In this document: positions 3,001 through 64,000 of the stretch, in pieces
Numbering within the stretch: the stretch's first letter is position 1
How the letters are laid out: the number at the start of each line of letters is the position of its first letter
NCBI GenBank assembly: GCA_964016885.1
Contig: OZ024740.1
Span: forward strand, 163,990,001-164,054,000
DNA from: Eledone cirrhosa
Lineage: Eukaryota
Direction: 5' to 3'
Length of the DNA: 64,000 nt
Program-made: the position numbers and the translations under genes
The notes under the pieces: model-generated
What the model was told of the DNA's origin: nothing
Database searches by the model: none
Seen by the model: only the letters and a program-made list of their open reading frames with translations

Positions 3001-4330
3001 TCTTCTGGTTTTATAATTTCACAAATTTTGGCCAATAGAGAGAGAGTCTGTTTCTAACATAGACACAAGACTCTCTCATTGGAATTTACACAACATCAAC
3101 TAGGTAGATATATATGCATGTCTGCATGTGTAGATATGGATGTTATTCTATGTGTGGAAGCATGTGTATATGATTATCATCTGTACATATGTATATGCAG
3201 TTATTAGATGCAACATTTTTGGAATGTTTTACATATTTTTACTGTTCCATTAATGGATTGTACTTGTAATTTCCTAACTAGTTGTGTTCTTTCTGTTCCT
3301 GTGAAGCTCAGCTTCTCAAGATTTGTATTGAGGCAGTTACTAACATACCCCGGTGCCCCAATAATCACAGGCATAAATCAGAAGGTATAATCAGGGTGGA
3401 ATATCTGTAGATTTCTCATCAGTTCTCCATAAATATTCTCCTTTTCGTTAATCTTTGATATTATATTAGCATCTGCTGGGCAGCTAATTTCCACTACTGT
3501 GCATGCCTTCTTTTCCCTGCCCCATATCATAATATCTGGTCTGTTATGCTTGCATTTTATTGGGGTTTTTACTGGAACATTCCACCAGTACTCTTTCATA
3601 TTATGTATATGTATGTCTTCCACATTGCTGTAGCTTTAAATGTGTTTATTATCGGAGCTATCTTTTCTACGGATTGTATTGTACAGTGTTTTGGCCACTA
3701 TATCATGCCTCATAAGTAGATAGTACCGTGATGACATCTTTGGACAGCTGCTTATGGTATGGGTGACATCTTCGATGTTAATTTTGCAGAGTCTGCACTT
3801 GTTATCACATCTAGGTGTTTTGCCTGCCTCCCTCTCTCTTTTGTGAATCAGGTATTTCGTGTTAATCTCCTGTTCTTGGATTGCAAAAGCGTATCCTTCA
3901 AAGTGGGAGCCAATATAGCGGTTGTTGGTCCAAGATAGACTACTTTCTTTATCTATATTACTCTCACTCTGGAGCTTCCTGGCAACATATCCATGCACGA
4001 TTTTTTGCTGATAAGCATGCAGTTTTTCATCCATGGATTCACTGCGATACTGCTAAGCGACTTCCCTGGGTGTGAGGTTTTAATTATCACACAGGGAATA
4101 CCTCTCGAGGAGTTCCTTCCCAACTCTCATGATCTTATCTATTTCATGCAGATAGACCGGCTCCTACGCTTTGAGGTTCGTATATGTTGTCGGAGGGATA
4201 TGATGCGACATTCAAATGCTGTCTGGACTGATGTTAGGCCTGATGTCCAGTAAAGGCGGTCTATGTCACTGTTGATGTGGAAGTTTCCGGTGTCTTTTAG
4301 TATTTTTCGAGTTCTAACATCAATTGCTCG
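3001..4330 (-). mobile_element. 5'-truncated R4/Dong-type non-LTR retrotransposon, family B (decayed)
   Basis: Broken ORFs contain IDVRTRKIL..TGNFHINSDIDRLY, CRLCKINIEDVTHTISSC (CCHC), RHD and HNRPDIMIW..VVEISCP (REL), all homologous to the 1169-aa ORF. (TATG)n on both sides. Confidence 0.9.
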
Positions 4331-22875: not shown

Positions 22876-22963
22876 GGACATTATTATTCCTTACATTAAA
22901 CTGCAACTATGCTTTAACTAACGTCTTCTATGTGAAATTTGAGGTCTTGCTTTGCTTAACTAA

Positions 22964-24122: not shown

Positions 24123-24302
24123 TCCAGTATCGTTAGTGGGTCGGACGCCATGCTTAGCAGCATGGAGTTACGGGCCTTTACGATCTGAGATCAAATCGCG
24201 CCGAGGTTAACTTTGCCTTTCATCCTTACGGGGTCGATAAAATAAAGTACCAGTAATACACTGTAATAATTGCTGGCCTTTTGCCAAAAGTAGAAACAAT
24301 TA
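24123..24302 (+). mobile_element. tRNA-derived SINE
   Basis: Same family as 19195, in sense orientation, with decayed A and B boxes. Confidence 0.8.
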
Positions 24303-25291: not shown

Positions 25292-25429
25292 AATATATGT
25301 ATGTGTGTGTGTGTGTGTGTGTGTATGTGAGTGTGTGTCTGCGCGCGTGTCTGTGTGTTGAACATAAAGGTTGATAATGATTTCTAGTTTTCTCCTGGTA
25401 TCCATTTCACCACTAAAACTAAATAAAAT

Positions 25430-25612
25430 AATTGTTTCTACTATTGGCACAAGGCCAGAAATTAACCAGTGTATTACTGGTACTTTATTTTATCGACCCC
25501 GTAAGGATGAAAGGCAAAGTTAACCTCGGCGGGATTTGAACTCAGAATGACAAGGGCCGTAACTCTGTGCGTCAAAGCATGGTGTCCGACCCTCTACCGA
25601 TACTGCCAATTC
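25430..25612 (-). mobile_element. tRNA-derived SINE
   Basis: Near-identical to 19352-19533. Confidence 0.85.
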
Positions 25613-26477
25613 ACCAAAATAATGGAGGCAATGAGGGTTTATCTACATGGTCACTTGTCATGCACGAATTAGCAGTTGATTTTTTTTCAAACCATATCAT
25701 ACCACTTCATATTGATAATGGAGTCCTACATACATTTAAGAAATGACGAGGTTGTCACGGTCAGAATACCTTTAATCATATGCCTGTCTGATCAGGTTTG
25801 ACCTGAAGATAAAAAGAAAACAAAATATACAACAAAATAATCGCTTTCGTGAGTTGAATAAAACACCCATAGAAATATTCAAAGCTTCTATGAAACAATT
25901 TGCGAACAGAATCCTAAAAAGTACAACAAAACACAATTAGAAGGAAGAAAAGAAGAATTTATACTTCAATGGACACGTACACGTACAAGATGTAGCGATG
26001 GTACCCTGGTGATACCATCATGAGTTAAGGGTCAATGAATGGATAGATTAAGATCAATATTGTCCAATGACTCATCACACATTTAGGACGATATTCTATC
26101 TATATTTTTGTATTATTTTACTGGTGTCAGTCATTTAACTGCAACCACGCTGGGCGCTGCCTCCAAAGGTTTAGCCGATTTTATCGACATGTATTCGCTA
26201 TTGCTTAAAGGCTGGCATATATGTTATCAAGGTTGCATTATGGAATAGATGCTTTACAAACCATAAACACACAGTACCGATTGGTAAGCGGTGCAAGCGT
26301 AAACACATATACGCACAGAGGAAATACATTAAAAACTCTTATATATATGTATATATATCGAGAGAGAGAGAAAGCCAATAATCTCTCACGCCTGTCTCTT
26401 TCTCCCCCTCTCTCTCTGTCGCTTTTCTAGATATCTCTCTATCTATTAATCACTCTCACCACACCCTCTCTACTTCA

Positions 26478-30358: not shown

Positions 30359-31158
30359 TTATATATTATAAATTTATATATATAGATATATATATAAATA
30401 CATATATACATATATATATATGAATGCAGCATTACACAGACGCATACACACACACATATACACACATATATATATATGATTTTATATTTATACGATATAT
30501 GTAATATATTTATAAATATAAATATATCTCACACACACGGAGATTCATATATATATATATATATATATACATACACACATAATACTTACATACACATATA
30601 TACATATATGTATACATGTATATATATACATGTATAAATGTTAGCATACATACTCAAGAATAAAAAGATACATGCATAAATGAGTACAAACATTTCTAGA
30701 AATGAAAATCTATTATTTCTTAATAATTTATAGTGGAAAAGAACTATTGTTATTACTCTCTCGCTCTCTCTCTCCCTCTCGATCTCTCTCCCTCTCTCTC
30801 TCCATCTCCCCACTCTCTCTCCCAACATACACAGAGAAAAACACAGACACACACACATACATATATATATATATACATACATCCTTTCTTTCTCTCACAC
30901 ACACCACACACATGTATATAACTTCTACATAGCCGTGCAGTGAAATAAATTTCACGTGATCTGGAAAACAGCTGAGCTGTCAGAAATACAGGAGCTCGGG
31001 AAGTAAATGGTAGTATGGAAATACCACAAGGTATTTTGTCCGACGCTTTACAGATTCTACCAATTTCCCGGCAATACAGGAGCATTGTATCATGTTAAGA
31101 CATGTAGAAGTTGAAACATCTGCATCCCTGACACTTCTACACTTTACTGTCATCCTAT

Positions 31159-31342
31159 AATTGTTTCTGCTTTTGGCACAAGGCCAGCAATTATCCCAGT
31201 GCATTACTGGTACTTTATTTTAACGACCCCGTAAGGAGGATGAAAGGCAAAGTTAACCTTGGCAGAATTTGAACTCAGACCATAAAGGGCCGTAACTCTT
31301 TACTGCAAAGCATGGCGTCCGACCCTCTACCGATACTGCCAA
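31159..31342 (-). mobile_element. tRNA-derived SINE
   Basis: Same family as 19195. Confidence 0.85.
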
Positions 31343-35484: not shown

Positions 35485-35645
35485 CATACACATCTATATA
35501 TATATATCTATCTATCTCTCTCTCTATATATATATATATATACGTAATACAAACATATATACATACATATATGTAGATACATATATACATACATGTATAC
35601 AAACATATATACATACATATATGTATGAATATGTATGAATATTAT

Positions 35646-36227
35646 GTCAGGTCACCAGTTGGTGCTACTGGTAACATGTATGCCAGTACAACCTGTCTCA
35701 TGGTCGGGTCGTTGGCGACTTGGTGAGGAGGGTGACTTTGGACATCCTGCAGGACTAAAAACAAAACCTGTGAAAGGGCAAAGGAGCTCTTAAGAGTCAA
35801 TGGCCATCCAAAATCACTGGGAGAGATGACCCCTTAGCCTTTGTCAAGGCAGAATTCTAGGAGAAGGAAAACTCTGATATAACACCTGCAACTCTGATGG
35901 TATCCAATGATGTTGACTTGTTCTTCGTTTTGGTAAATATCATCTTGGTTAAGAGAGCGGGACTGGCTTTGTGCAGTGCCTTTGCTCACTATAAAACCTT
36001 CATGGCACAGGCATTCCTTTATATCTGGAGATCTCTCTGCACTTGTCGTCACATGGTACCATGGGCCCAGCACTATGTGTCAATAATTGTCACAAGTGTA
36101 GTGTTTGTACCAGAGTTTTCAAGTCGCTGGCTGGACTAAAAAGTCACACTCGTTTAGCGCATCGGTAAGGGTTCTCCTACATGGATATAAAGTAGTGACC
36201 GTACTCGAAAACGAGTTGGGAGCCACC
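35646..36227 (+). mobile_element. ~600-bp non-coding element with an RTE-like 5' motif
   Basis: Homologous to the 40089 array; contains ggcagaattctaggagaaggaaaactctgat. Confidence 0.75.
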
Positions 36228-36429
36228 ATATTTGTATATAAATATATCTATATATGCCCCCCCCCCCCACACACATATATATATATATGTATGTGTGTGT
36301 GTGTTATGTGTATACTACACAATGAAAAAACATTTGTTTTTCACAGAGAAAAGAATAGTTTTTGTACTTGACCGGCGTCACTTAAAACAGCTTTTCAAAC
36401 GTTTTTTCATGTCTATTTTCCACTTGTAA

Positions 36430-39299: not shown

Positions 39300-40014
39300 T
39301 CTTCTGGTTTTATAATTTCACAAATTTTTCCCAATAGAGAGAGAGTCGGTTTCTAACATAAACACAAGACTCTCTCATTGGAATTTACACAACATCAACT
39401 AGGTAGATATGTATGTATGTCTCCATGCATGCATGTGTAGATACGGATGTTATTGTATGTGTGGATGTGTATATTTTGAGTTGTATGTGTGCATGTGTAT
39501 ATATACTTTGTATCTGTACATGTGTATATGCAGTTATTAGATACAACATTTTTGGAATGTTTTACATATTTTGACTGTTCCATTAATGGATTGTACTTGT
39601 AATTTCCTAACTAGTTGTGTTCTTTCTGTTCCTGTGAAGCCTAGCTTCTCAAGATTTGTATTGAGGCAGTTACTAACATACCCCGGTGCCCCACTAATCG
39701 CAGGCATAAATCTGAAGGTGTAATCAGGGTGGAGTATCTGCAGATTTCTCATCAGTTCTGCATAAATATTCTCCTTTTCGCTAATCTTTGATATTATATT
39801 GGCATCTGCTGGGCAGCTAATTTCCACTACTGTGCATGCTTTCTTCTCCCTGTCCTATATCATAATATCTGGTCTGTTATGCCTGCATTTTATTGTGGTT
39901 TTTACTGGAACATTCCACCAGCACTCTTTTATATTATGTACATGGATGTCTTCCACATTGCTGTAGCTTTAAATGTGTTTATTATCGGGACTATCTTTTT
40001 TACGGATTGCATTG
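39300..40014 (-). mobile_element. 5'-truncated Dong-type family B fragment
   Basis: REL C-terminus (EISCPADANII..ICKTFQK) and a 3' UTR matching 3001-3680. TATG flanks. Confidence 0.9.
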
Positions 40015-40088: not shown

Positions 40089-40770
40089 TCAGGTCACCAG
40101 TTGGTGCTACTGGTAACATGTATCCCAGTACAACCTGTCTCATGGTCGGGTCGTTGGCGACTAAACTGGCAACCCCACGAAGGTTTCTTGGAGAGGAGAG
40201 TGACTTTGGACAACCTGCAGGACTAAAAACAAAATCTGTCAAAGGGAAAAGGAGCTCTTAAGAGTCAATAGCCATCCAAAATCACCGGGAGAGATGACCC
40301 CTTAGCCTTTGTCAAGACAGAATTCTAGGAGAAGGAAAACTCTGATATAACACCTGCAACCCTGATGGTATCCAATGATGTTGACTTGTTCTTCTATTTG
40401 GTAAATATCATCTTGGTTAAGAGAGTGGGACTGGCTTTGTGCAGTGCCTTTGCTCACTATAAAAGCTTCACGGCACAGGCATTGCTTTATATCTGGAGAT
40501 CTCTCTGCACTTATCGTTACATGGTACCATGGGCCCAGCACTATGTGTCAATAATTGTCACAAGTGTAGTGTCTGTACCAGAGTTTTCAAGTCGCTGGCT
40601 GGACTAAAAAGTCAGACTCGTCCAGCGCATCGGTAGGGTTTCTCCTACATGGATATAAAGTAGTGGCCGTACTCGAAAACGAGCTGGCAGCCACCATGTA
40701 TGTATGTATGTATGTATGTATGTATGTATGTATGTATGTATGTATGTATGTATGTATGTATGTATGTATG

Positions 40771-40804
<34 letters not shown>

Positions 40805-42798
40805 TGTATGTATGTATGTATGTATGTATGTATGTATTGTATATGTATGTATGTATCATGGTCGGGTCGTTGGCGACTAAACTGGCAACCCCACCAAGGT
40901 TTCTTGGTGAGGAAGGTGACTTTGGACATCCTGCAGGACTAAAAACAAAACCTGTGAAAGGGCAGAGGAGCTCTTAAGAGTCAATGGCCATCCAAAATCA
41001 CCGGGAGAGATGACCCCTTAGCCTTTGTCAAGGCAGAATTCTAAGAGAAGGAAAACTCTGATATAACACCTGCAACCCTGATAGTATCCAATGATATTGA
41101 CTTGTTCTTCTATTTGGTAAATATCATCTTGGTTAAGAGAGTGGGACTGGCTTTGTGCAGTGCATTTGCTCACTATAAAAGCTTCACGGCACAGGCATTG
41201 CTTTATATCTGGAGATCTCTCTGCACTTATCGTTACATGGTACCATGGGCCCAGCACTATGTGTCAATAATTGTCACAAGTGTAGTGTCTGTACCAGAGT
41301 TTTCAAGTCGCTGGCTGGACTCAAAAGTCAGACTCGTTCAGCGCATCGGTAGGGGTTCTCCTACATGGATATAAAGTAGTGGCCGTACTCGAAAACGAGC
41401 TGGCAGCCACCATGTATGTATGTATGTATGTATGTATGTATGTATGTATGTATGTATGTATGTATGTATGTATGTATGTATGTATGTATGTATTGTATAT
41501 GTATGTATGTATCATGGTCGGGTCGTTGGCGACTAAACTGGCAACCCCACCAAGGTTTCTTGGTGAGGAGGGTGACTTTGGACATCCTGCAGGACTAAAA
41601 ACAAAACCTGTGAAAGGGCAAAGGAGCTCTTAAGAGTCAATGGCCATCCAAAATCACCGGGAGAGATGACCCCTTAGCCTTTGTCAAGGCAGAATTCTAA
41701 GAGAAGGAAAACTCTGATATAACACCTGCAACCCTGATAGTATCCAATGATATTGACTTGTTCTTCTATTTGGTAAATATCATCTTGGTTAAGAGAGTGG
41801 GACTGGCTTTGTGCAGTGCATTTGCTCACTATAAAAGCTTCACGGCACAGGCATTGCTTTATATCTGGAGATCTCTCTGCACTAGTCGTCACATGGTACC
41901 ATGGGCCCAGCACTATGTGTCAGTAATTGTCACAAGTGTAGTGTTTGTACCAGAGTTTTCAAGTCGCTGGCTGGACTAAAAAGTCACTCTCGTTCAGCGC
42001 ATCGGTAGAGGTTCTCCTACATGGATATAAAGTAGTGGCCGTACTCGAAAACGAGTTGGCAGCCACCATGTATGTATGTATGTATGTATGTATGTATTAT
42101 GTATGTATGTATGTATGTATGTATGTATGTATTATGTATGTATGTATGTATGTATGTATGTATGTATGCATGTATGCATGCATGCATACATGGTGGCTGC
42201 CAACTCGTTTTCGAGTACGGCCACTACTTTATATCCATGTAGGAGAACCCCTACCGATGCACTGAACGAGTGTGACTTTTTAGTCCAGCCAGCGACTTGA
42301 AAACTCTAGTACAAACACTACACTTGTGACAATTACTGACACATAGTGCTGGGCCCATGGTACCATGTGACGACTAGTGCAGAGAGATCTCCAGATATAA
42401 AGCAATGCCTGTGCCGTGAAGCTTTTATAGTGAGCAAATGCACTGCACAAAGCCAGTCCCACTCTCTTAACCAAGATGATATTTACCAAATAGAAGAACA
42501 AGTCAATATCATTGGATACCATCAGGGTTGCAGGTGTTATATCAGAGTTTTCCTTCTCCTAGAATTCTGTCCTGACAAAGGCTAAGGGGTCATCTCTCCC
42601 AGTGATTTTGGATGGCCATTGACTCTTAAGAGCTCCTTTGCCCTTTCACAGGTTTTGTTTTTAGTCCTGCAGGATGTCCAAAGTCACCCTCCTCACCAAA
42701 AACCTTGGTGGTGTTGCCAGTTTAGTCGCCAACGACCCGACCATGAGACAGATTGTACTGTGATACATGTTACCAGTAGCACTAACTGGTGACCTGAC
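40089..42798. mobile_element. array of the ~600-bp element: 40089-40695 (+), 40856-41411 (+), 41512-42067 (+), 42192-42798 (-)
   Basis: Four near-identical units separated by (ATGT)n. The second and third lack the first ~52 bp. Confidence 0.9.
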
Positions 42799-42849: not shown

Positions 42850-45800
42850 AAATGGCGACCGTTGTGGTCAGTGTCCGATAATCGGACGTGTGTAATTACG
42901 GCTTACATGAAGGCAACATACCATATATTGGAAAAAGTTGAGCTACATTACGCGGTAAGATTACATACAATAATTCTACATAAGTGTTTGAACTGTAAGT
43001 GTGTTGTAAAACACCTATTTATATGAACGATACATACACTTATGATATATGAACGATACATACACTTTAACATATAAATGCAACGTTGTTATATTACATT
43101 TATAAAGAAATATACAAGTAACGTTTTCGATTCAGAAACAAAAACATAAGTGTTTGAACTGTGAATATGTTGTGAATAAGTTGTAGAACACCTATTTACA
43201 TGAATGATACATAAACTTTAACATATAAATACAGCGTTGTTATATTATATTACATTCATAAAGAAATATACTGAGTAACGGTTCTTTTTGTTCTCGATTC
43301 AAACGATTCAAGAACAACGTTTAAAACACAGTTGTAGAATTAAAAAACTAACTGAAAAGAAATATTACCCAAGCTGTGAATAACTTTAAATTTGATTCTG
43401 ACAGAACTTTGTCGAAACTTTTAAAGAAGATCATCGACTATTTTGAAAAATAAATACGAAATATTAGTGAATAGACGAACTCATCATGGCAGAAAGTACA
43501 AGTCTCCTTCGACCAAATCGCAACTATAACCGTTGTATACAGTGGAGTTACGAGCTTAACAAAGTATTATATGAAGCATACAAACAATCTGAACCCCAAA
43601 AGTTCGGTTTTATGCAAAGGCTAAAAACTTTATGGAACTCCAAACACCCAGAATTAGACTTTTCTTCAAAGCATTTAAATGAACAGGCAAAACGTATCAT
43701 TAGATGTAAATTGATACATCTAACGGAATTGAGTGATACTACAAATACAGCCCTTGTAGACAACCACCCCACCTCCACTGACAGACAAAGAGAATGGCCA
43801 GCTAAATCTAACAGTGAACAGCTCACCAACAATTTTGCTGAAATCCATCCCACTTCCACTGAAGAACAGCGAGAAAGGTCAGCTAACTCTAGTAATAATT
43901 GTCACAGCATCAACAACGAGGCTGAAATTCATGACTCTACTGAACAAACAGAGCACCAAAACTTGTGGACACCCTACAAGTGATATGGAACGATATGTTT
44001 CAAGAGATACACAGCCTTAATGTGAGTGACAGACCATACAACACTAGAATCAGTAAAGAACACACTAAATTGGAATTGGAAGCGGTGAACGAAATAGCTG
44101 GCAATTATCTGAAGGCTATACGATCTAAAGGTGTAGAAACGACATTTGAAACGCTTAATGTTTTGTTATATGTTTCAGCTGTCACATTGCTATCATATAA
44201 CACACATCTAAAACCACGCAATCAAGATACAAACAGAAAGCCTGAACTAGTGTGGATGCGAAATTTAAAAACCAAAATTTTGTCCCTGAGACGAAGTATC
44301 TCACACATCGCAGTCGTTATGAAATGCAACATAGAGAGCAACTTCACACGACACCAGGAAGACCTAAAGAAAAAGTTAGATAGACGATTTGGAGATACAA
44401 AATTTAAAACTTTGAACTCCAAATTACACCAGTTGAAACAACAACTCACAGCTACAACAGAAAGACTAAAATATAAGTCAACAGCACATAAACGACAAGT
44501 GCTAAATAGATTGTTTGCCAGAGATCCTAAATCAGTTTATCGCAGCTTCGGTGGCAAAAGCTCAATCCCTGTAAACGACATCCCTTCAAAAGAACAGCTT
44601 GAGTGCTACTGGAGATCTGTATGGGAAACGGATGACGGATTCAACAGACAAGCTAATTGGCTAAAAGAACTGGAACAGGACTACTGCCAACATGTCCAGA
44701 CAAAACAATATGACATAGATGGGTCAATACTGGAAACAGCTCTACAGAAAATGTCGAATAGGAAATCGCCAGGCCCAGACCTCATTACAGGATCCTGGTT
44801 GAAGAATTTCACTTTCTATCGGCAAGATCTCATACGGCTGTTTACAGAAACCATTAAAGGCACACAAGAACTGCCCAGATGGTTATCAATTGCCACTACT
44901 CTCCTCATTCCCCAAAATAGGCAAACCACCCTTGCTAAAAATTACCGCCCAATTGCCTGCCAAAACATCATGTATAAATTATATACTGGGTGCCTTAACC
45001 TGTTCTTACAGGATCACTGTGCTACCAACAACATCATAACATCTGAGCAAGCTGGTGGAAAGAGGGAGGTGTGGGGTTGCATAGATCACCTACTAACTAA
45101 CAAAATGATTCAGGAAAAAACAACAAAGAATCGCAGAAACATGACTGTCGTGTGGCTGGACTATCAAAAAGCATTTGATAGTGTACCTCATGGGTGGATT
45201 ATTAAGGCTTTACAGTTAGCTAAAGTCCCACAACCATTGGTAGCTGCTGTTGAACGCCTGACCAAGAACTGGTACACCAATTTGATCCTTAGAGGTGAGA
45301 AGGAGCAGGTTAAGACTGATAAGATACATTACCAGAAGGGCATCTTTCAGGGTGATAGCTTGTCAGTGCTACTCTTCGTTCTCTCACTGAATCCACTATC
45401 TTACCTACTCAGGAAGCAAGGTTGACAAAGAAGTGGGCCCAGAAGTATCTCCCATCTTTTCTTTGTTGATGACCTGAAGTTGTATGGGCCAAATATCAAT
45501 GACATCAAGAAACAATTGGACCTCATTACACAATTTTCAACCGACATCAAAATGAAATTTGGTGAGTCCAAGTGTGCATATTTGGCAGTAAAACGTGGAA
45601 GAGCTGTGCCCTCCTCTAGAAATCTAGAGATGAACGGCCTGACAATACAACCTCTGCAGTCAGGTGACAACTACAGATATCTTGAACAGGATGAGAATGT
45701 CAGATATGATGGACCCATAAATAAGGAGAGAACCAGAACTGAAAATACCTCAGAAGAGTAAAGAAAATATGGTCATCAGAACTGTCAGCATACAACAAAT

Positions 45801-47074
45801 ACATTGCCCACAATACTTATGCTGTGCCAATTCTAACGCCAACATTTGGCCTGCTGAACTGGTCATTGCAAGAACTAAGTGAGATGGATGTTAGAACTCG
45901 AAAACTTCTCAGTGTTACTGGCAACTTTAACATCAATGGTGATGTGGATAGGCTATACTTCTCACGCAAGGAAGGTGGCCGGGGTCTAAAATCAATATTA
46001 ACAACATATGAGACCCGGATAGTAACACTGAAGCAACACTTTCAACAGAGGAAAAAGGTTGGCAACCATCTTGCCCAGGTTTATGAGCATGAAAAAAGAA
46101 ATATCATTAGAATAGCGACTGATCTGGAGGAGAGATATGGAATAAAGCCTGATATAAATCTCTCACCCAGAGAAATCGGAAGATCATATTCAATGTTCAA
46201 ACAAGATAAAAAAATTGACCTATTTACAGAAAAAGTTGTGCATGGATACTTGAGGCGTAAAACACAGACCATAGAGGGGATAAACCACTCAAAAAGCCTG
46301 GCATGGAGTTCCGACAAGTTTATGACATCACACCTTGAGGGATATCTCTATGCAATACAGGATCAAGAACTCCCTGCCAAATATCTGCTGCACAAAAGAG
46401 GAGGGCCAGCAGCTGACAATAAATGTAGGCTATGTAAAACAAAGATCGAGGATGTAAGCCACATTGTTGCCAGCTGCGAAAGAATGTCATCTCGCTACTA
46501 CCTCCCCATGAGACACGATGGGATAGCTACAACCATCTGGAACGCACTTCGGAAAACAAAATTAACAACAAACGAGGAAGAATATATTGAGACAGATGGC
46601 ACTAAGGAATACTGGTGGAACCTGAAAATAAAAACTGCCACCAAATTAAAGCACAACCGGCCTGATATTGTTGTTTGGGACCACACATTGAAAACGTGTT
46701 CTGTTGTGGAGATCAGCTGCCCACTTGATGTAAACGTTGTCAGAAAAATACAGGAGAAGGAGGACATCTACGGACCATTGATGAGGAGTTTACAAATCCA
46801 GTATCCAAGATACACCTTTAGCTTCATACCCATCATTATTGGAGCTACGGGTTATATACCAACCCGCTTGGACCAAAGTATGACTGAACTTGGATTTGCG
46901 AACAAAAAGCGCAGCTCCCTAATTCCTAGTCTACAAATGGCTGCGATAGCTGGCACCTTCAAAATTTGCAAAACATTCTTGCGATTCAAGGGATAACAAT
47001 TTCTTTTCTTTTACAACCTTGCCACCAGGAAGGTGGCCGGTCAAAAAAATATACTCGAAATTAAGAGAAAGAGA

Positions 47075-47076
<2 letters not shown>
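42850..47076 (+). mobile_element. full-length but disabled R4/Dong-type retrotransposon, family A
   Basis: Colinear with 51445-55444. Lesions: 1-nt deletion near 43960, CGA to TGA at 45423, 2-nt insertion near 45743. (CATA)n on both sides. Confidence 0.95.
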
Positions 47077-47142: not shown

Positions 47143-47400
47143 ATGGTGGCCTCTGGCAACCGAAGCCAAGCTCATTGCCTTCCTGTGGTGGAAATGTTTG
47201 AAACTGACAAGGAGAAGACGAAAAGGTGAGTTACTGGCGCCTTAAGATCAGTTGCTCCAAGTAGACGGAACTTGTCAGCCTTGGGTGACTGTCATATAGG
47301 AGAAGGGCCACTCTTAATTCAAAACTGAGGTAGATAGGACACCTTAGTCATAATCATGACAACCCATCTGCGCTTGGGAACTCGGAAACCTTTTTGTTGG
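47143..47400 (+). mobile_element. RTE-like 5' UTR fragment
   Basis: gttgctccaagtagacggaacttgtcagccttggg..taggagaagggccactcttaattcaaaac resembles the recalled RTE/BovB 5' UTR motif. Confidence 0.45.
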
Positions 47401-48040
47401 TATCAGGATGCGCATTATGTCCACTGGGTGTCAAGGACATCAATATAAACGATTGAAGAAGAGAAGCAGCGCGATAATATTAAACGCAAACATATTCCTA
47501 AATATATGTCAGCAAGATTTGATTGGGTACAAAAGTATTTCAAAGGGAATTTCTGTAATCTCTATACATTTTTGTTTTGTTTCACTTCTATTTGCTTAGC
47601 TGATAAATTAATGCTTAAGAAAGACACACGCCACTGAGAAGGTAGATATTGAGTGTTGCTTGTTCATTTTGAAATGTTCTCTTCTGTTGACACAGGTTAT
47701 GAAAACAGCGAAGTTTTTGGTGCAACTGTAGTTTACCATATTAAAGATCTTATATCTACAGTGTACGGATTTCATGTAAAATTGGATATTTAAATATGCT
47801 AATGAACACTTTACTATCAGAATCTATTATGTGGCCATTCAAATGTTGTGAAAAGAATAGTTTATTATCATCGTAGAGACCGAAATATGCCTAACGGAAT
47901 CTGTTTCTCAATAAATCTAAGACATACAATCCTATCAATTCACAAACCCCAGCTCCATTATACAATTTCATGGCTATATCAAACAATCCGAGTGCATTAC
48001 ATTTAACCGAAAATAGCAAAGATTTCCTACCAAGCATGAT

Positions 48041-48222
48041 AATTGTTTCTACATTTGGCACAAGGCCAGCAATTACCTCAGTGCATTACTGGTGCTTTAT
48101 TTTATCAAGCTCGTAAGGATGAAAGGCAAAACTAACCTCGGTGGGATTTGAACTCAGAACATAAAGGGCCATAGCTCTATGGTGCAAAGCATGGCGTCCG
48201 ACCCTCTACTGATACTGCCAAT
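48041..48222 (-). mobile_element. tRNA-derived SINE
   Basis: Same family as 19195. Confidence 0.85.
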
Positions 48223-49327: not shown

Positions 49328-49359
<32 letters not shown>

Positions 49360-49414
49360 TGTATGTATGTATGTATGTATGTATGTATGTATGTATGTAT
49401 GTATGTATGTATGT

Positions 49415-51362
49415 TCTTCTGGTTTTATAATTTCACAAAGTTTTCCCAATAGAGAGAGAGTCGGTTTCTAACATAGACACAAGACTCTCTCATTGGAATT
49501 TACACAACATCAACTAGGTAGATATGTATTTATGTTTGCATGCATGCATGTGTAGATATGGATGTTATTGTATGTGTGGATGTGTATGTTTTGAGTTGTA
49601 TGTGTGCATGTGTATATGCTTTGTATCTGTACATGTGTATATGCAGTTATTAGATGCAAAATCTTTGGAATGTTTTACATATTTTTACTGTTCCATAATG
49701 GATTGTACTTGTAATTTCCTAACTAGTTGTGTTCTTTCTGTTCCAGCTTCTCAAGATTTGTATTGAGGCAGTTACTAACATATCCCAGTGCCCCAATAAT
49801 CACAGGCATAAATCTGAAGGTGTAATCAGGGTGGAGTATCTGCAGATTTCTCATCAGTTCTGCATAAATATTCTCCTTTTCACTAATCTTTGATATTATA
49901 TTGGCATCTGCTGGGCAGCTAATTTACACTACTGTGCATGTTTTCTTCTCCCTGTCCCATATCATAATATCTGGTTTGTTATGCCTGCATTTTATTGGGG
50001 TTTTTACTGGAACATTCTACCAGTATTTTTTCATATTATGTACATGGATGTCTTCCACATTGTTGTAGCTTTTAATGTGTTTATTATCGGGGCTATCTTT
50101 TTTACGAACTGCATTGTACAGTATACTGTTACCAAACATCGTCTCTATTTTATTTTTCACTCTTTGTTAGTGAGGAATGAGGTTTTTGTGTGTTTGTTTG
50201 CATGCAAGGAGCATTATCACATGTCCTATGTTTTTTCCTATGTCAGCACTCTTTTTTTCTATTTTAGTTATATATGATGGTATTTTTGGTGGTGTTTTGT
50301 TCTTGTTAATATTTCTGCTATCACCAAGATAATGCTTCACTTTCATTGCTAAGGCATATAAACAGGCGTTGATTTGCCAAAATGTTGGGGTTTTTATCCG
50401 TCGTAAATATTCATCCCCTATTTCGTCAATAACACGTAGTATTTCATTATTTGGTTTTTTATTCACCATTGTCATTTTAACACGTTCAGCCAGAGAGATA
50501 TTTATACATGAGTTAATTTCTCTCTGGAAGATTTGGTTGAGGGAAATTTTCAATTGTTTATACTTTTGATTATCATTATCGATAGTATTTTCCACAACAG
50601 TCGAGGTAGACTCGGATGGTATACGTGGTGTCACATTTATTCGATTATTATTATTATTTCTTCGATTATTATATCGATAGTGTTTTCCCCAGCATTCGAG
50701 GTAGACTTAGATGGTACAGGTGGTGTCAAGTTTCTTACAGGCATAGTTGTTTCAAGGCGCTGTTCGACCTGGCTGCTAGGAAGTCTAGTAGCATGGCGAT
50801 CTGAAGCACGTGTTGTTGATTCCATGTTTGTTGTGGGGGACTTACAATTAATAATATTTATCTTATTTTTACGTTCAACAAACGTCGCTTGTTGGCGTAA
50901 TTGTTTCGCTGGGAAATAATTTAGCTCTGGGTGCATTTCGTCCCAGTGTAACTTCATTCTATTCATATAGCCAATGGAGGGATTGTTTTTTGCCATTTTA
51001 TAACAATTAAATAAATCATTATTAAGTTCGCAACTCCAAGAGAAATGCGATTTATGATTTCGGTTTCTTCTGTAGCTACAACTGAATAAAGTTTGATTAC
51101 CTTCCTTGTTATTTGTCTTCGATACTTCCTTAATTTTCTTGTTGATGTTGTGTTCAGCAAATCCTTGTAAAATGAATTATGTATTTAGTCGGATATCTCT
51201 ACGAATTCGAATAAAAGGTGTCTTCAGAAGGGATAGTTAGAAGAATAAGCAGTTATTCAACCTGACTGTAGTTGTGGCATTACTGTCGGAGATAGTATTC
51301 ATCTTAAATTTAATAAATAGTCTCCCACGCCAAAATATGCGACTGATCGCGTTGACTGATGG

Positions 51363-51363
<1 letters not shown>
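49415..51363 (-). mobile_element. internally deleted Dong-type family B element (both ends kept, RT and CCHC lost)
   Basis: N-terminal motif GYMNRMKLHWDEMHPEL..KQLRQQA and a region homologous to the family A N-terminus are joined near 50123 to the REL and 3' UTR. TATG flanks. Confidence 0.85.
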
Positions 51364-51393
<30 letters not shown>

Positions 51394-51444
51394 TGTATGT
51401 ATGTATGTATGTATGTATGTATGTATGTATGTATGTATGTATGT

Positions 51445-54400
51445 TTTCTCTTTCTCTTAATTTTGAGTATATTTTTTGACCGGTCACCTTCCTGGTGGCA
51501 AGGTTGTAAAAGAAAAGAAATTGTCATCCCTTGAATCGCAAGAATGTTTTGCAAATTTTGAAGGTGCCAGCTATCGCAGCCATTTGTAGACTATGAATTA
51601 GGGAGCTGCGCTTTTTGTCCGCAAATCCAAGTTCAGTCATACTTTGGTCCAAGCGGGTTGGTATATAACCCGTAGCACCAATAATGATGGGTATGAAGCT
51701 AAAGGTGTATCTTGGATACTGGATTTGTAAACTCCTCATCAATGGTCCGTAGATGTCCTCCTTCTCCTGTATTTTTCTGACAACGTTTACATTAAGTGGG
51801 CAGCTGATCTCCACAACAGAACACGTTTTCAATGTGTGGTCCCAAACTACAATATCAGGCCGGTTGTGCTTTAATTTGGTGGCAGTTTTTATTTTCAGGT
51901 TCCACCAGTATTCCTTAGTGCCATCTGTCTCAATATATTCTTCCTCGTTTGTTGTTGATTTTGTTTTCCGAAGTGCGTTCCAGATGGTTCTAGCTATCCC
52001 ATCGTGTCTCATGGGGAGGTAGTAGCGAGATGACATTCTTTCGCAGCTGGCAACAATGTGGCTTACATCCTCGATCTTTGTTTTACATAGCCTACATTTA
52101 TTGTCAGCTGCTGGCCCTCCTCTTTTGTGCAGCAGATATTTGGTAGGGAGTTCTTGTTCCTGTATTGCATAGAGATATCCCTCAAGGTGTGATGTCATAA
52201 ACTTGTCGGAACTCCATGCCAGGCTTTTTGAGTGGTTTATCCCCTCTATGGTCTGTGTTTTACGCCTCAAGTATCCATGCACAACTTTTTCTGTAAATTG
52301 GTCAATTTTTTTTTCTTGTTTGAACATTGAATAGGATCTTCCGATTTCTCTGGGTGAGAGATTTATATCGGGCTTTATTCCATATCTCTCCTCCAGATCA
52401 GTCGCTATTCTAATGATATTTCTTTTTTCATGGTCATAAACCTGGGCAAGATGGTTGCCAACCTTTTTCCTCTGTTGAAGGTGTTGCTTCAGTGTCACTA
52501 TCCGGGTCTCATATGTTGTTAATATTGATTTTAGACCCCGGCCACCTTCCTTGCGTGAGAAGTATAGCCTATCCACATCACCATTGATGTTAAAGTTCCC
52601 AGTAACACTGAGAAGTTTTCGAGTTCTAACATCCATCTCACTTAGTTCTTGCAACGACCAGTTCAGTAGGCCAAATGTTGGCGTTAGAATTGGCACAGCA
52701 TAAGTATTGTGGGCAATGTATTTGTTGTATGCTGACAGTTCTGATGACCATATTTTCTTTACTCTTCTGAGGTATTCAGTTCTGGTTCTCTCCTTATTTA
52801 TGGGTCCATCATATCTGACATTCTCATCCTGTCCAAGATATCTGTAGTTGTCACCTGACTGCAGAGGTTGTATTGTCAGGCCGTTCATCTCTAGATTTCT
52901 AGAGGAGGGCACAGCTCTTCCACGTTTTACTGCCAAATATGCACACTTGGACTCACCAAATTTCATTTTGATGTCGGTTGAAAATTGTGTAATGAGGTCC
53001 AATTGTTTCTTGATGTCATTGATATTTGGCCCATACAACTTCAGGTCATCAACAAAGAAAAGATGGGAGATACTTTTGGTCCCACTTCTTTGTCGACCTT
53101 GTTTCCTGAGTAGGTAAGATAGTGGATTCAGTGAGAGAACGAAGAGTAGCACTGACAAGCTATCACCCTGAAAGATGCCCTTCTGGTAATGTATCTTATC
53201 AGTCTTAACCTGCTCCTTCTCACCTCTAAGGATCAAACTGGTGTACCAGTTCTTGGTCAGGCGTTCAACAGCAGCTACCAATGGTTGTGGGACTTTAGCT
53301 AACTGTAAAGCCTTAACAATCCACCCATGAGGTACACTATCAAATGCTTTTTGATAGTCCAGCCACACGACAGTCATGTTTCTGCGATTCTTTGTTGTTT
53401 TTTCCTGAATCATTTTGTTAGTTAGTAGGTGATCTATGCAACCCCACACCTCCCTCTTTCCACCAGCTTGCTCAGGTGTTATAATGTTGTTGGTAGCACA
53501 GTGATCCTGTAAGAACAGGTTAAGGCACCCAGTATATAATTTATACATGATGTTTTGGCAGGCAATTGGGCGGTAATTTTTAGCAAGGGTGGTTTGGCTA
53601 TTTTTGGGAATGAGGAGAGTAGAGGCAGTTGATAACCATCTGGGCAGTTCTTGTGTGCCCTTAATGGTTTCTGTAAACAGCCGTATGAGATCTTGCCGAT
53701 AGAAAGTGAAATTCTTCAACCAGTATCCGGTAATGAGGTCTGGGCCTGGCGATTTCCTATTCGACATTTTCTGTAGAGCTGTTTCCAGTATTGACCCATC
53801 TATGTCATATTGTTTTGTCTGGACATGTTGGCAGTAGTCCTGTTCCAGTTCTTTTAGCCAATTAGCTTGTCTGTTGAATCCGTCATCCGTTTCCCATACA
53901 GATCTCCAGTAGCTCTCAACCTGTTCTTTTGAAGGGGTGTCATTTACAGAGATTGAGCTTTTGCCACCGAAGCTGCGATAAACTGATTTAGGATCTCTGG
54001 CAAACAATCTATTTAGCACTTGTCGTTTATGTGCTGTTGACTTATATTTTAGTCTTTCTGTTGTAGCTGTGAGTTGTTGTTTCAACTGGTGTAATTTGGA
54101 GTTCAAAGTTTTAAATTTTGTATCTCCAAATCTTCTCTCTAACTTTTTCTTTAGGTCTTCCTGGTGTTGTGTGAAGTTGCTCTCTATGTTGCATTTCATA
54201 ACGACTGCGATGTGTGAGATACTTCGTCTCAGGGACAAAATTTTGGTTTTTAAATTTTGCATCCACGCTGGTTCAGGCTTTCTGTTTGTATCTTGATTGC
54301 GTGGTTTTAGATGTGTGTTATATGCTAGCAATGTGACAGCTGAAACATATAACAAAACATTAAGCGTTTCAAATGTCGTTTCTACACCTTTAGATCGTAT

Positions 54401-55444
54401 AGCCTTCAGATAATTGCCAGCTATTTCGTTCACCGCTTCCAATTCCAATTTAGTGGGTTCTTTACTGACTCTAGTGTTGTATGGTCTGTCACTCACATTA
54501 AGGCTGTGTATCTCTTGAAACATATCATTCCATATCACTTGTAGGGAGCCCACAAGTTTTTGGTGCTCTGTTTGTTCAGTAGAGTCATGAATTTCAGCCT
54601 CGTTGTTGATGTGGTGACAATTACTACTAGAGTCAGCTGACCTTTCTCGCTGTTCTTCAGTGGAAGTGGGATGAATTTCAGCAAAATTGTTGGTGAGCTG
54701 TTCACTGTTAGATTTAGCTGGCCATTCCCTTTGTCTGTCAGTGGAGGTGGGGTGGTTGTCTACAAGGGCTGTATTTGTAGTATCACTCGATTCCGTTAGA
54801 TGTATCAATTTACATCTAATGATACGTTTTGCCTGTTCATTTAAATGCTTTGGAGAAAAGTCTAATTCTGGGTGTTTGGAGTTCCATAAAGTTTTTAGCC
54901 TTTGCATAAAACCGAACTTTTGGGGCTCAGATTGTTTGTATGCTTCATATAATACTTTGTTAAGCTCGTAGGTCCACTGTATACAACGGTTGTAATTGCG
55001 ATTTGGTCGAAGGAGACTTGTACTTTTTGCCATGATGAGTTCGTCTATTCACTAATATTTCGTATTTATTTTTCAAAATAGTCGATGATCTTCTTTAAAA
55101 GTTACGACAAAGTTCTGTCAGAATCAAATTTAAAGTTATTCACAGCTTGAGTAATATTTCTTTTCAGTTAGTTTTTAATTCTACAGCTGTGTTTTATATA
55201 AATGTAATATTTCTTTATAAATGTAATATAACAACGTTGCATTTATATGTTAAAGTGTATGTATCGTTCATATAAATAGGTGTTTTACAACACACTTACA
55301 GTTCAAACACTTATGTAGAATTATTGTATGTAATCTTACCGCGTAATGTAGCTCAACTTTTTCCAATATATGGTATGTTGCCTTCATGTAAGCCGTAATT
55401 ACACACGTCCGATTATCGGACACTGACCACAACGGTCGCCATTT
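51445..55444 (-). mobile_element. intact full-length R4/Dong-type non-LTR retrotransposon, family A
   Basis: ~410-bp 5' UTR starting aaatggcgacc, a single ORF and a ~80-bp 3' UTR. (TATG)n directly on both sides. Confidence 0.95.
51524..55033 (-). CDS. 1169-aa retrotransposon protein: RT, CCHC zinc knuckle and restriction-like endonuclease
   Basis: KSPGPD, NYRPIAC, WLDYQKAFDSVPH, GIFQGDSLS, HLFFVDDLKLY, YRYLG, GGRGL, CRLC..EDVSHIVASC, RHD, RPDIVVWD..VVEISCP..EKEDIY. No APE domain and no N-terminal C2H2. Confidence 0.95.
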   Translation of the reverse strand: MAKSTSLLRPNRNYNRCIQWTYELNKVLYEAYKQSEPQKFGFMQRLKTLWNSKHPELDFSPKHLNEQAKRIIRCKLIHLTESSDTTNTALVDNHPTSTDRQREWPAKSNSEQLTNNFAEIHPTSTEEQRERSADSSSNCHHINNEAEIHDSTEQTEHQKLVGSLQVIWNDMFQEIHSLNVSDRPYNTRVSKEPTKLELEAVNEIAGNYLKAIRSKGVETTFETLNVLLYVSAVTLLAYNTHLKPRNQDTNRKPEPAWMQNLKTKILSLRRSISHIAVVMKCNIESNFTQHQEDLKKKLERRFGDTKFKTLNSKLHQLKQQLTATTERLKYKSTAHKRQVLNRLFARDPKSVYRSFGGKSSISVNDTPSKEQVESYWRSVWETDDGFNRQANWLKELEQDYCQHVQTKQYDIDGSILETALQKMSNRKSPGPDLITGYWLKNFTFYRQDLIRLFTETIKGTQELPRWLSTASTLLIPKNSQTTLAKNYRPIACQNIMYKLYTGCLNLFLQDHCATNNIITPEQAGGKREVWGCIDHLLTNKMIQEKTTKNRRNMTVVWLDYQKAFDSVPHGWIVKALQLAKVPQPLVAAVERLTKNWYTSLILRGEKEQVKTDKIHYQKGIFQGDSLSVLLFVLSLNPLSYLLRKQGRQRSGTKSISHLFFVDDLKLYGPNINDIKKQLDLITQFSTDIKMKFGESKCAYLAVKRGRAVPSSRNLEMNGLTIQPLQSGDNYRYLGQDENVRYDGPINKERTRTEYLRRVKKIWSSELSAYNKYIAHNTYAVPILTPTFGLLNWSLQELSEMDVRTRKLLSVTGNFNINGDVDRLYFSRKEGGRGLKSILTTYETRIVTLKQHLQQRKKVGNHLAQVYDHEKRNIIRIATDLEERYGIKPDINLSPREIGRSYSMFKQEKKIDQFTEKVVHGYLRRKTQTIEGINHSKSLAWSSDKFMTSHLEGYLYAIQEQELPTKYLLHKRGGPAADNKCRLCKTKIEDVSHIVASCERMSSRYYLPMRHDGIARTIWNALRKTKSTTNEEEYIETDGTKEYWWNLKIKTATKLKHNRPDIVVWDHTLKTCSVVEISCPLNVNVVRKIQEKEDIYGPLMRSLQIQYPRYTFSFIPIIIGATGYIPTRLDQSMTELGFADKKRSSLIHSLQMAAIAGTFKICKTFLRFKG

Positions 55445-55478
<34 letters not shown>

Positions 55479-55527
55479 TGTATGTATGTATGTATGTATG
55501 TATGTATGTATGTATGTATGTATGTAT

Positions 55528-55560
<33 letters not shown>

Positions 55561-55582
55561 CATATATATGTGCATATATATA

Positions 55583-55652
<70 letters not shown>

Positions 55653-55656
<4 letters not shown>

Positions 55657-58375: not shown

Positions 58376-58577
58376 TAATTGTTTTTACATTCAGCACAAG
58401 GCCAGCAATTTGAAGAGAAGGAGAAAGTCGATTAAATCGACCCTAGTGCGTTATAGGTACTTTACTTTTCGACACCACAAGGATGAAAGGCAAAGCTAAC
58501 CTCGGCGTGATTTGAACCCGGAACGTAGAGGACCGCAACTCTATACCGTAAAGCATATTGTCCGACACACTACCGAT
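58376..58577 (-). mobile_element. tRNA-derived SINE, diverged
   Basis: Core aaggatgaaaggcaaagctaacctcggcg and B box complement gatttgaacc. Confidence 0.75.
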
Positions 58578-59337
58578 AATATAATAATAGCCATGATTAA
58601 AAAAATAACAAAAAGCAATGTTCAAAACTACACATTTTGAGGGATCGATGCACTTGATTTAATCTTACTAAGTACGTAACTACTACTTATTTTATCGTTC
58701 CTGGGTAGATGAAAAGTAAAGTTGAATTCAGTTGATTTGAGTTCAGAATGTAAAGGAATGCCCATAAGTATCACCGGTCATCTCGTTCTGCATCCTTCCG
58801 ATTCTGATATCCATAGATTATAAAATATCACACTGTCCCTTGAACGAAGTAAAGCAATGTCAGTCACCGATAGTCAGCACGGTGGTCTCTCTGCTCGTGA
58901 GAAACCTTGCTTAAACTCAGTTGCAGTCATCATGGACTTATGTATATAATTATATAAGGAGGGGAAGTAGCAGAGTTTTTAGGACGTCACATAGAATAAT
59001 TTTCCTTATCGATTCCTACTCTCTGATTTTGAATCCCGTCGAGTTGAAATTTGTCTTTCATCTTTTTGACATCTATAAATGAAATACCAGTTCAACACAG
59101 GAACGATTCTTCATCTATATCTTATTTTCGATTTTTCTTATCGTCTTAAATTTCTTTTTACTTCTACTGGTTTAAGTAATCAGACTGTGGAAATTCTGGA
59201 GCACCACTTTTACGGGTGTTTATCGGATCATAATTCATTTCAGCTGGGTATTTATTTTATTGATTTCTTTTCATCAAATGTAGTTAACATAAAGAGACAC
59301 AATTCGACGCACCTTTGTACACAGGTAAATACGTTCA

Positions 59338-61267: not shown

Positions 61268-63138
61268 TTGAGCAACACTAGAACGCTGGAGAACGTTAAT
61301 AGAGAAAAGAGAGAGAAAGAGGCAGATATTAACGTTATATCTGCTTCTGCTGCTATGGACGTTGCCATAGAGACAAGTGTTACAAAAGAAAAAAATATAT
61401 CAACATTTGAAAATTTTACAATTTCTACCGCCGAAGCGGAGAAAAATGACAATAACACACAGGAAAACACGGCAAAAAAACCCATTGACATACATACACA
61501 TGAAAAAGACATCAACAACTCTACAGATACATCTACACATAAAATTTCCAACAACGATAACATCATTATCAACAACAACATCACACAAAAAAAGAAAATG
61601 TCTTTCGCTGACACAGTCAACAAGAAACAAGATTTTATAAATCTTGATATCTCCAACGCAAGAGATATGCTCCAGCAAGGGAGAAAATTTGTAACTTTCG
61701 AAGAAAGAGGTGGGTTTAGAATTAACTCACCCCTTGAAATAAAGGAAGACACAAACCGCTGATCAGTCACTTTTAGGACTGTGTCAAATTCGTCAAGAAA
61801 ACCGACATTTGTTAATCAGTCAGATATAGAAGATTCTTTCAAGGAGATTCTAGCAAATGTCGATTTTCTCCAGCGAGGAAAACAGTACGGAAGTGTTTCC
61901 GTACTGTTAAAAAGCGAGACACTCGCTCAAAAAAACTCTGTGACACCAATAGTGTCAAAAGCATACACCTTTTTCCCTACATACATGGGGAAAAGGACAC
62001 AAAAAATAAAAATAAAAAACAAACCTCCAAGCATTAACATCTGGTGGATCTTGGCTGGCTTCGTAGAGCCAGAAACAGACATAATACTTTCGATACGAAA
62101 ATCCATTCGACAAAGGTGGGCGGGCACCGATTTGGAGATTCTGTTGCAAATGAAACCGGAGAGAATCTCCAAAATACCCGAAAGAGTCGTTATTGATAAT
62201 AACAACAAAATAAACATTTCGGTAGAAGGACGAAAATTTCACTGCTTTCGCTGTGGTAGCATATCTCACCTAAAAGCCTCTTGTCCACAAACACACAACA
62301 ACAACATCATAAAAAAAACGCTATTACCAACACCAACACCAAAACAACCACCACCACCACCTCAAGTACAACGACAGACGAAACGAGCAACCACACCAAA
62401 ACAAACAGACACTCAACCAACAACAACAGAAAAAACAGAGACAACACCCCTGAAGAACACATCCCCACTCCATCAAACACTACCACAAACACACATACCG
62501 AAACACCACCACCACCACACAACATACCCTTACCCCACACACCTGACGATGATTATTCATCGACGGATGAAGCTGCTTCTCCTTCTTTAAGTGAAGAAGA
62601 GGGAGAACCGCGGAAATCCAAAAAACAAAAAAAGAGACACCACAAAACCCACAAAACTCCAATCACCAACACCAACACACAACCACAGACACAAACAACA
62701 ACACAAACAACACCACAGTCAAACATCCCCCTATCAGCAAAACCAGCACCAACACCACCCCAAATACAAGCACCCACCATAAAAAGAAAACTCCCGGATG
62801 AACAACAAACTAAAACAATACAACAAAAACACAAACAACAATACGCATACATCAACACAAACAACAAGAGTTTGATGGAGGTCATCTCCCAAAACCCCAA
62901 GGTGGAGACGGAGGGCAAAACTTTCGTCAAGGCAGAATCGTCTCCACACCTTAAACTTATAAGGGTTTCTATGGAAACCTATAAAGACCTGAAAATTAAA
63001 TTTTCACAGGACGTGGGCAATCCCTGCCACAAACCCATCAACCGCGTCCTGTTGAAAGGTTTCCCCACCCCACCCAATACCCCATCCAGCACCCAAATGG
63101 AGATTGAACAAACCGATCTCCAGGAAACGAAAAGGTAA
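61268..63138 (+). pseudogene. LINE ORF1 with a CX2CX4HX4C knuckle, disrupted
   Basis: CFRCGSISHLKASC. In-frame TGA at 61760 between same-frame ORFs, and a frameshift in the Pro/Thr-rich region (about 62310-62460). Start codon uncertain. Confidence 0.75.
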
Positions 63139-63179
63139 GTGCACCTTTCGTCCTTTTTCTCCAACTTTTCTTCACCAAC

Positions 63180-64000
63180 ATGGCTGGTTTACGAGTTGGA
63201 ACCGTGAATGTGCGTGGCCTAGGGATGCCCTGGAAACAGGGCCAACTTTTAAACGACCTTAGGTCACACAGTATGGATGTGATAGCCATCACCGAGTCCA
63301 GAATCCACAACAGGCAGCAACTAACCCCCATCTTCGACGACTTTGAGATCTACGCATCTCTCTGTCAGCCAGGAGGTGGAGGTGGAGTGGCTGTTATGTT
63401 TCGGAAGAACCTGGACGTCGGAGTACAGCAAGTACACTTGGACCCGGAGGGTAGACTGGTAGTCCTAGACGTGAACAGTATCGGAGGTGGAGCCTTCAGA
63501 CTGGTGGTCGTTTATGCCCCGACCGGGCAATCGCAATCACGGCCAGACTTCTTTAAGCGTCTAGAGTCTTTTCTGGGAACGTCTCGCTCCTTACTTTTAG
63601 TGGGGGACTGGAATGGTATCCTAGATGCACGATGGGACTATGTGGGAGCATGTCCCAGTAGAGCGGGGTGCAACAACCTCAAAACTTTAATCGGCCAATT
63701 CCAACTGGCCGATAGGTATCGACTGGATTTCCCAACTGCACCACAGTGGACGTGGGTAAACCGCAGTGGGACATCTAGATCGTATTTAGATAGGTTCTTC
63801 ATTAGAGAAAGGGACAAGGATATGTTAAGCTGTCCACGAATGCACATGGTTGCCTATTCAGATCACAAGTTAGTCGTCTGCTTAGTCAACCGTGATAGAA
63901 TACATAGACAGGGTCCCGGATACTGGAAGCTGAACGTGTCGTTGCCGGCACGTAAAGCTTACAGTGAACGGATAAGTAAACTAGTCAAGCAACAGTTAAC
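63180..64000 (+). CDS. LINE ORF2 N-terminus, APE endonuclease (partial)
   Basis: My translation: MAGLRVGTVNVRGL..DVIAITES..GGVAV..GRLV..VYAP..LVGDWN..WTW..SYLDRF..SDH..GPGYWKLNVS, open to the window end. Not in the ORF track. Confidence 0.9.
   Translation, partial: MAGLRVGTVNVRGLGMPWKQGQLLNDLRSHSMDVIAITESRIHNRQQLTPIFDDFEIYASLCQPGGGGGVAVMFRKNLDVGVQQVHLDPEGRLVVLDVNSIGGGAFRLVVVYAPTGQSQSRPDFFKRLESFLGTSRSLLLVGDWNGILDARWDYVGACPSRAGCNNLKTLIGQFQLADRYRLDFPTAPQWTWVNRSGTSRSYLDRFFIRERDKDMLSCPRMHMVAYSDHKLVVCLVNRDRIHRQGPGYWKLNVSLPARKAYSERISKLVKQQL

Follow-up and report, generated by a model that had tools for sequence, protein, structure and literature searches.

The stretch analysed here, which we call the window, comprises 64,000 nucleotides of the Eledone cirrhosa genome (GenBank assembly GCA_964016885.1, contig OZ024740.1, positions 163,990,001 to 164,054,000 of the forward strand). 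It contains a full-length retrotransposon of 4000 bp without long terminal repeats (window positions 51445..55444, (-) strand; delimited by self-BLAST and family alignments), the type copy of what we call family A. We think it likely that family A is a young, full-length R4/Dong-type element that inserts into (ACAT)n arrays in one orientation and one 3' register, with a protein that likely binds and nicks the repeat. The observations behind this view are the domain order of the protein, the flanks, the strand, the 3' register, the pre-existing repeat that adjoins randomly truncated copies at their 5' ends, and a sister family associated with (TAA)n. The target specificity of family A and of its relative, family B, is strongly supported, and what appears to be new is the ACAT target within the R4/Dong-type site-specific retrotransposons.

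ACAT repeats flank family A and family B

The 3' flank of the full-length copy is an (ACAT)20 array (51364..51444, (-)), which is also the 5' flank of a family B copy lying in tandem behind it (49415..51363, (-); 1949 bp, both ends kept, internal deletion). Its 5' flank is an (ACAT)n array that grades into (AT)n (55445..55653, (-)), and the B copy is followed at its 3' end by an (ACAT)21 array (49330..49414, (-)). The window holds a second family A copy, 96% identical, with two frameshifts and ACAT repeat on either side (42851..47075, (+)), and two 5'-truncated family B copies (39300..40014 and 3001..4330, both (-)). Read on the element strand, all five 3' junctions (3001, 39300, 47076, 49415, 51445) consist of the element followed by ACATACAT, and all five 5' sides (4331, 40015, 42850, 51363, 55445) adjoin ACAT repeat, which is degenerate at 4331. 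The original prediction, made from the window alone, had described this shared 3' phase with repeat at the 5' side even of truncated insertions, and both features hold at all five copies.

The same arrangement is found across the genome. An 18-mer from the family A 3' end matches exactly at 720 sites (3 for the reversed control), which are followed within 3 nt by ACAT in 582 cases and by ATGT in 3. For family B, a 3' 19-mer gives 5852 matches, 5080 of them then ACAT, so that the proposal of two diverged families inserting in (TACA)n is supported genome-wide. The 5' end of family A has 337 exact 20-mer matches; ACAT lies upstream of 29 of the first 30 in position order, and the remaining one follows the 3' end of an earlier copy. 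Among the loose ends at internal break points that were listed, five are ACAT repeat (runs labelled organisms B, D and F).

Individual flanks were called at 80 3'-end loci taken in position order on contig C1, the window's own copy being skipped. Four loci without an alignment across the anchor were dropped (one chance match and three short or deleted copies, these three then followed by ACAT), which left 61 young copies (identity to the window copy of 93% or more) and 15 diverged ones (below 93%). Because the loci L114/L115 and L121/L139 are duplicated, the 61 copies represent at most 59 events. ACAT is the best repeat call at 55 of the 61 5' flanks and at 55 of the 61 3' flanks (both sides in 50 copies, either side in 60), and ATGT at none. 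The numerous non-repeat 5' flanks that had been named as the refuting case therefore did not arise among young copies. In these copies (AT)n is called at only four 5' and two 3' flanks, and AAT/ATT at 0 of 61. The background tells a different story: among 79,840 20-mers from 20 evenly spaced 10-kb stretches (200 kb), ACAT-type 20-mers make up 0.66% per strand, versus 5.1% for (AT)n.

The genome contains a further family, E (loci L348-L377), which was found with a (TAA)-group query. It is R4/Dong-like, has many open frames of 1141 aa and is 30% identical to A; (AAT)n follows 26 of its 29 copies and ACAT follows none. Random insertion with passive survival in microsatellites is on record for the Waldo-A/B elements of Drosophila, found near CA repeats (PMC3812793), and the E. 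cirrhosa genome is rich in microsatellites. Such an explanation is effectively refuted by the 582:3 strand bias together with the single register, and it is the youngest copies that show the strongest association. Moreover, since A and E belong to one clade and sort to two repeats in one genome, passive accumulation cannot explain the pattern, and we consider it next to impossible.

Family B is 56% identical to A in the reverse transcriptase (RT) region and about 4.1 kb at full length. Its 3' flanks, taken in position order, are ACAT in 25 of 30 cases. In 20 B copies with a complete 5' end, the longest open reading frame (ORF) reaches 832 aa and none exceeds 1000 aa, and B thus looks older.

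Shape of the junctions

The 3' junctions of the young A copies fall at a single offset in 52 of 61 cases, four being off by one base and five lying elsewhere, whereas the 5' junctions of truncated copies are present in all four repeat phases. The fixed register originally claimed thus stands for the 3' junction and fails for the 5' one. Among 43 truncated copies, 24 have clean 5' joins with 0-4 nt of overlap (1-4 nt in 19 of them), 14 have extra or imperfect bases, and in five no array was called by the script. As for target-site duplications, two of 54 overlaps were scored informative, with one 20-nt case (L086), which is too little in pure repeats.

It could be argued that the element itself makes the repeats at both ends, by tailing and slippage, and that they were not there before. 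The arrays beside the copies are indeed long (median of the summed length, about 110 nt), when the 200-kb control holds just 10 perfect ACAT arrays (304 bp summed; 207 for AT and 44 for AC). However, among the 49 copies whose truncation exceeds 250 nt, 46 have ACAT at the 5' break, and the break points number 47. The flanks also carry locus-specific interruptions, similar in style on both sides, and a preference for long arrays would equally predict long flanks. Repeats made by the element are therefore very unlikely.

The main alternative is that priming is guided by the RNA: a read-through ACAT tail would anneal to the nicked ATGT strand, and the nuclease would be only loosely specific. Annealing naturally gives a fixed strand and register, and the lack of poly(A) leaves the RNA 3' end undefined. 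On contig C1, tandem family A copies (at L128 and L089) have 5-12 nt of ACAT-like sequence between them, which may reflect a template jump or a re-insertion; such spacing fits template jumping onto short-tailed RNA. Yet the 3' flanks of near-identical (~99%) copies diverge from ACAT inside the first two units (L002, L012, L065, L078, L133), and flanks that vary so early between copies are not a fixed tail. At the 5' side the repeat measures at least 20 nt in 53 of 54 copies, and the abundant (AT)n arrays, matching three of four bases, are seldom used. We therefore regard RNA-guided priming as improbable, and insertion into pre-existing arrays that the protein recognizes as the better account.

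Several observations weigh against recognition of the repeat by the element's protein. No ACAT occurs within 3 nt of 138 of the 720 3'-end matches, some of which are chance matches or variants. Only four 5' and seven 3' flanks of the 15 diverged copies are ACAT, with 5' boundaries that are unreliable in this group, and for family B the callable 5' flanks are ACAT in 10 of 18 cases and ATGT in one. Of the findings in favour, the greater length of the 5' arrays than of the 3' arrays (medians of 71.5 and 39.5 nt; n=54; p=0.003, Wilcoxon), which weakly fits binding upstream of the cut, is partly inflated by the script, given that four near-zero 3' values are register offsets and that there was slack on the 5' side. 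An empty allele was not seen, as contigs end at the repeats and none bridges the site. The top structural matches of the N-terminal domain, mostly Myb/SANT and telomeric-repeat-binding domains, are weak (Z at most 5.9). Finally, an unrelated, short element, family C, sits oppositely oriented in the same arrays.

The family A protein and a proposed mechanism

On the (-) strand, the full-length copy consists of a 5' untranslated region (UTR) of 411 nt (55034..55444), a single stop-free ORF of 1169 aa (55033..51524) and a 3' UTR of 79 nt (51445..51523). The ORF encodes an RT domain (aa 475-726, 52856..53611; Pfam RVT_1, E 8.5e-25). Alignment with 27 relatives places in it the RT motif FVDD (including V660), a CCHC zinc knuckle (aa 980-997, C980...H992...C997; 52043..52096) and a restriction-like endonuclease motif PD...E...K (aa 1059-1091, 51761..51859), with PD at 1059-1060, E1075 and K1091. 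ORF, Pfam and alignment thus bear out what had been read from the letters alone, namely an uninterrupted 1169-aa ORF with RT, CCHC and restriction-like nuclease motifs and both UTRs; the 79-nt 3' UTR has, as also stated, no poly(A). In a Pfam search of the window proteins, the family A ORF matched RVT_1 and zf-RVT only, and no APE domain was found in it.

An AlphaFold2 model of the protein (mean predicted local distance difference test score, pLDDT, 83.7) has R2 proteins as its best fold matches (top Foldseek structures, E 3e-34, 16-19% identity). R2 also provides the top sequence matches in PDB (E 3e-29). According to the model, the N-terminus is composed of three helices and a disordered linker, and zinc fingers were not found there. 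The three-helix domain (aa about 20-75, 54809..54976, (-); pLDDT 85) is predicted to be Myb/SANT-like. Its top VIA structural matches were TRF1 (Z 5.9), Zeste (Z 5.7) and NgTRF (Z 5.3); there was no Foldseek match at E<=0.001, and the N-terminal alignment, used for profile searches of Pfam and PDB, matched no Myb family. The segment aligns as a homologue of the same region in (TAA)n-flanked relatives. Its third helix in the group with four-letter targets is unlike that of the TAA group, a difference that is confounded with ancestry. Altogether, the model leans towards a Myb/SANT-like domain.

Taking R2 biochemistry and the shape of the junctions as guides, we propose that the N-terminal Myb-like domain binds the repeat upstream of the site where the restriction-like nuclease would nick the ATGT strand in a fixed phase, between ATGT units. 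The freed 3'-OH would prime reverse transcription on the A-rich 3' end of the element. Second-strand joining could proceed through 1-4 nt of microhomology, in any phase. Each insertion would split the array and leave repeat on both sides, so that nests like those of the window would build up. Insertion into ACAT arrays would in this way explain the stacked repeat nests of the genome.

No HDV-like ribozyme was matched in the 5' UTR by Rfam at E<=1. Our own descriptor of the hepatitis delta virus (HDV) ribozyme found nothing in A, B or eight TAA-group contigs, and so ran without a positive control. The 100 Rfam matches over 35000-56000 all lie under the gathering score and were rejected as repeat artefacts.

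Age and activity

Six of 13 near-full-length A copies in the C1 sample keep an ORF of 1168-1169 aa at 96.6-99.0% identity, which indicates that family A is young. Nine sites set the window copy apart from the family (five synonymous, three non-synonymous, one in a UTR). One of them gives Asn1081 (codon 51791-51793), which is private to this copy: it is found in 0 of 43 other copies, the position is Asp in 26 of 27 relatives, and the raw reads of run X24 have the other base at this codon in 463 of 469 cases. Residue 1081 sits between the presumed catalytic residues of the nuclease. The suggestion that this copy may be active hence fits the family better than the copy itself, which carries a private Asn at a conserved Asp of the nuclease domain.

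Window positions 42851-43330 and most of the loci L378-L407 belong to an older A subfamily, in which a segment of the 5' UTR is duplicated and the UTR is longer; the shorter form is that of the youngest A copies.

Relatives and clade membership

Among named proteins, the closest comes from Argonauta hians (62% across the part that aligns). We scanned metagenomes for relatives and considered the best 80 of 382 loci. Among these, many distant relatives, at 27-33% identity, have (AAT)n or (ATT)n at their end, and L141, L143 and L146 (36-44% identity) adjoin (CTTA)n, that is, (ACTT)n, one base away from (ACAT)n. The (CTTA)n repeat lies at the 5' side of L141 (1-60), with a short 3' match, on both sides of L143 (1-100, 4822-4871), and at the 3' side only of L146 (4651-4694), 1 kb from the ORF. 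As the three loci derive from two assemblies, the evidence for (CTTA)n is thin. Of other relatives, L157, L160 and L177, which form one clade, have (ATT)n in the opposite orientation, and L175 and L186 have (AT)n.

RT trees place A and B in one clade with the Argonauta protein, L141, L143 and L146 (support 100/98 with 23 rows and 100/99 with 10 rows; the first tree omitted six short or broken rows, the second kept 39 rows). Rows flanked by three-letter or AT repeats and the lepidopteran proteins fall outside it, their own grouping being weaker (86/53; 89/78). The A/B clade groups at 100/100 with the lepidopteran relatives and those flanked by (TAA)n, to which A is 25-33% identical over most of the protein; APE and NeSL-like rows stand apart from this group. 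The trees contain no named R4, Dong, Rex6, R2, HERO or CRE reference, and no named R4, Dong or Rex6 protein was among the protein-search or cluster matches (the Atlas clusters are RVT_1, unnamed). Families A and B would thus be members of the R4/Dong type by their architecture and by the proxy of the (TAA)n-flanked and lepidopteran rows in the trees.

Within the clade, B groups with L143 and L141 (99/95; 91/92) and not with A, which implies that the repeat unit changed at least once inside this branch. It is likely that the targets of the A/B branch were once three-letter repeats (TAA) and that it switched to four-letter ones (ACAT, ACTT). A bolder proposal is that A and B represent an undescribed, widespread R4/Dong branch with a three- to four-letter switch, one-base toggling between ACAT and ACTT, and the Myb-like helix as the switch; we offer it tentatively, as possible but somewhat more doubtful than not. 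If it is true, the target determinant could be mapped by domain swaps between ACAT- and TAA-specific members.

Other repeats in the window

Family C is a 607-bp non-coding element found in the same ACAT/ATGT arrays (window 40090-40696, (+)), with more copies at 40857-41412, 41513-42068, 42185-42797 (-) and 35617-36256. Its polarity is opposite to that of A, its fixed end joining ATGT and truncations lying at the other end; we counted 2356 candidates genome-wide, and an autonomous partner was looked for and not identified. Its presence means that these arrays draw other elements too. The ACAT array that follows the second A copy is adjoined by an unclassified sequence (47145-47400, (+)), whose start resembles the fixed end of family C in reverse.

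Elsewhere in the window, inverted repeats of 605 bp (97%) surround two RT-like frames (19535-22882; frames at 20124-21680, YRDD) that have no Pfam match and that may, by resemblance, be Penelope-like. At 61985-64000 (+), a zinc-knuckle ORF followed by an APE-like ORF probably marks where an L1/Tx1-type element begins. A repeat about 185 bp long, dispersed and resembling a short interspersed element, occurs at 19192-19535, 24125-24304, 25427-25613, 31157-31342, 48039-48222 and 58442-58578, with 75-96% identity between copies.

Comparison with known systems

How retrotransposons with a restriction-like nuclease change their target is a general question, and the A/E pair bears on it. Having ACAT and TAA families with intact ORFs in one genome provides a ready pair, in which target choice could lie with the Myb-like domain, with the nuclease or with the RNA end. 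R2-type proteins are under development for gene insertion (PMC13580325). No ACAT/CATA target turned up for any R4/Dong element in the literature covered, a scope that leaves Repbase, Dfam and several primary papers outside. A repeat database may already record the target of A and B, which we hold to be unlikely, though with a real chance. The view that a TACA specificity was undescribed is supported as regards R4/Dong elements, where no case was found in the literature covered, and has to be given up in general, an ACAY target being published for Waldo (PMC3812793).

Dong-R4 elements are abundant and young in Octopus (PMC13282606, PMC9115989, PMC10294476), with five families and 1129 recent insertions in O. 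vulgaris (PMC13282606). Family A resembles the octopus families of long interspersed elements in its clade label, probably in its host group, and in having young, full-length copies (PMC9115989, PMC13282606); we set A and B beside them by published description. In the parts covered of PMC9115989, PMC13282606 and PMC10294476, no target is stated for them. Our results suggest that short-read insertion callers would miss elements embedded in microsatellites. Such missed calls may bear on the few non-reference insertions of Dong in O. bimaculoides (PMC9115989), if that element targets microsatellites.

Dong of Bombyx mori, DongAg, DongBg and Darwinula Dong1/2 share with A a single ORF, an RT with a restriction-like nuclease, and insertion into microsatellites, which along with ribosomal DNA are the sites used in the R4/Dong clade. 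R4/Dong elements have been described with a divergent N-terminal Myb-like domain without zinc fingers, for which a role in targeting was proposed (PMC7998251). However, Dong-type elements target (TAA)n, whereas A targets (ACAT)n and sits in a separate, well-supported branch. B. mori Dong also has a 5' HDV-like ribozyme (PMC3774820), and in A none was detected, in the test that had no positive control. The R2 elements R2Tg, R2Pm and R2Bm are like A in the order of RT, CCHC and nuclease and, presumably, in target-primed reverse transcription, but they have N-terminal zinc fingers and a 28S ribosomal DNA target, and A has neither.

Further systems approach A from the side of the target. Tx1 families target four-letter repeats (PMC4494074). 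Togen and HERO are elements with a restriction-like endonuclease that insert into microsatellites such as (TG)n (PMC4640811); by their description they differ from A in clade and target. WaldoAg1, WaldoAg2 and WaldoFs1, insect elements of the R1 clade, have an ACAY microsatellite target as A does (PMC3812793), but they carry an APE endonuclease, in contrast to the C-terminal restriction-like nuclease of A. A target common to Waldo and family A would thus be a case of convergence.

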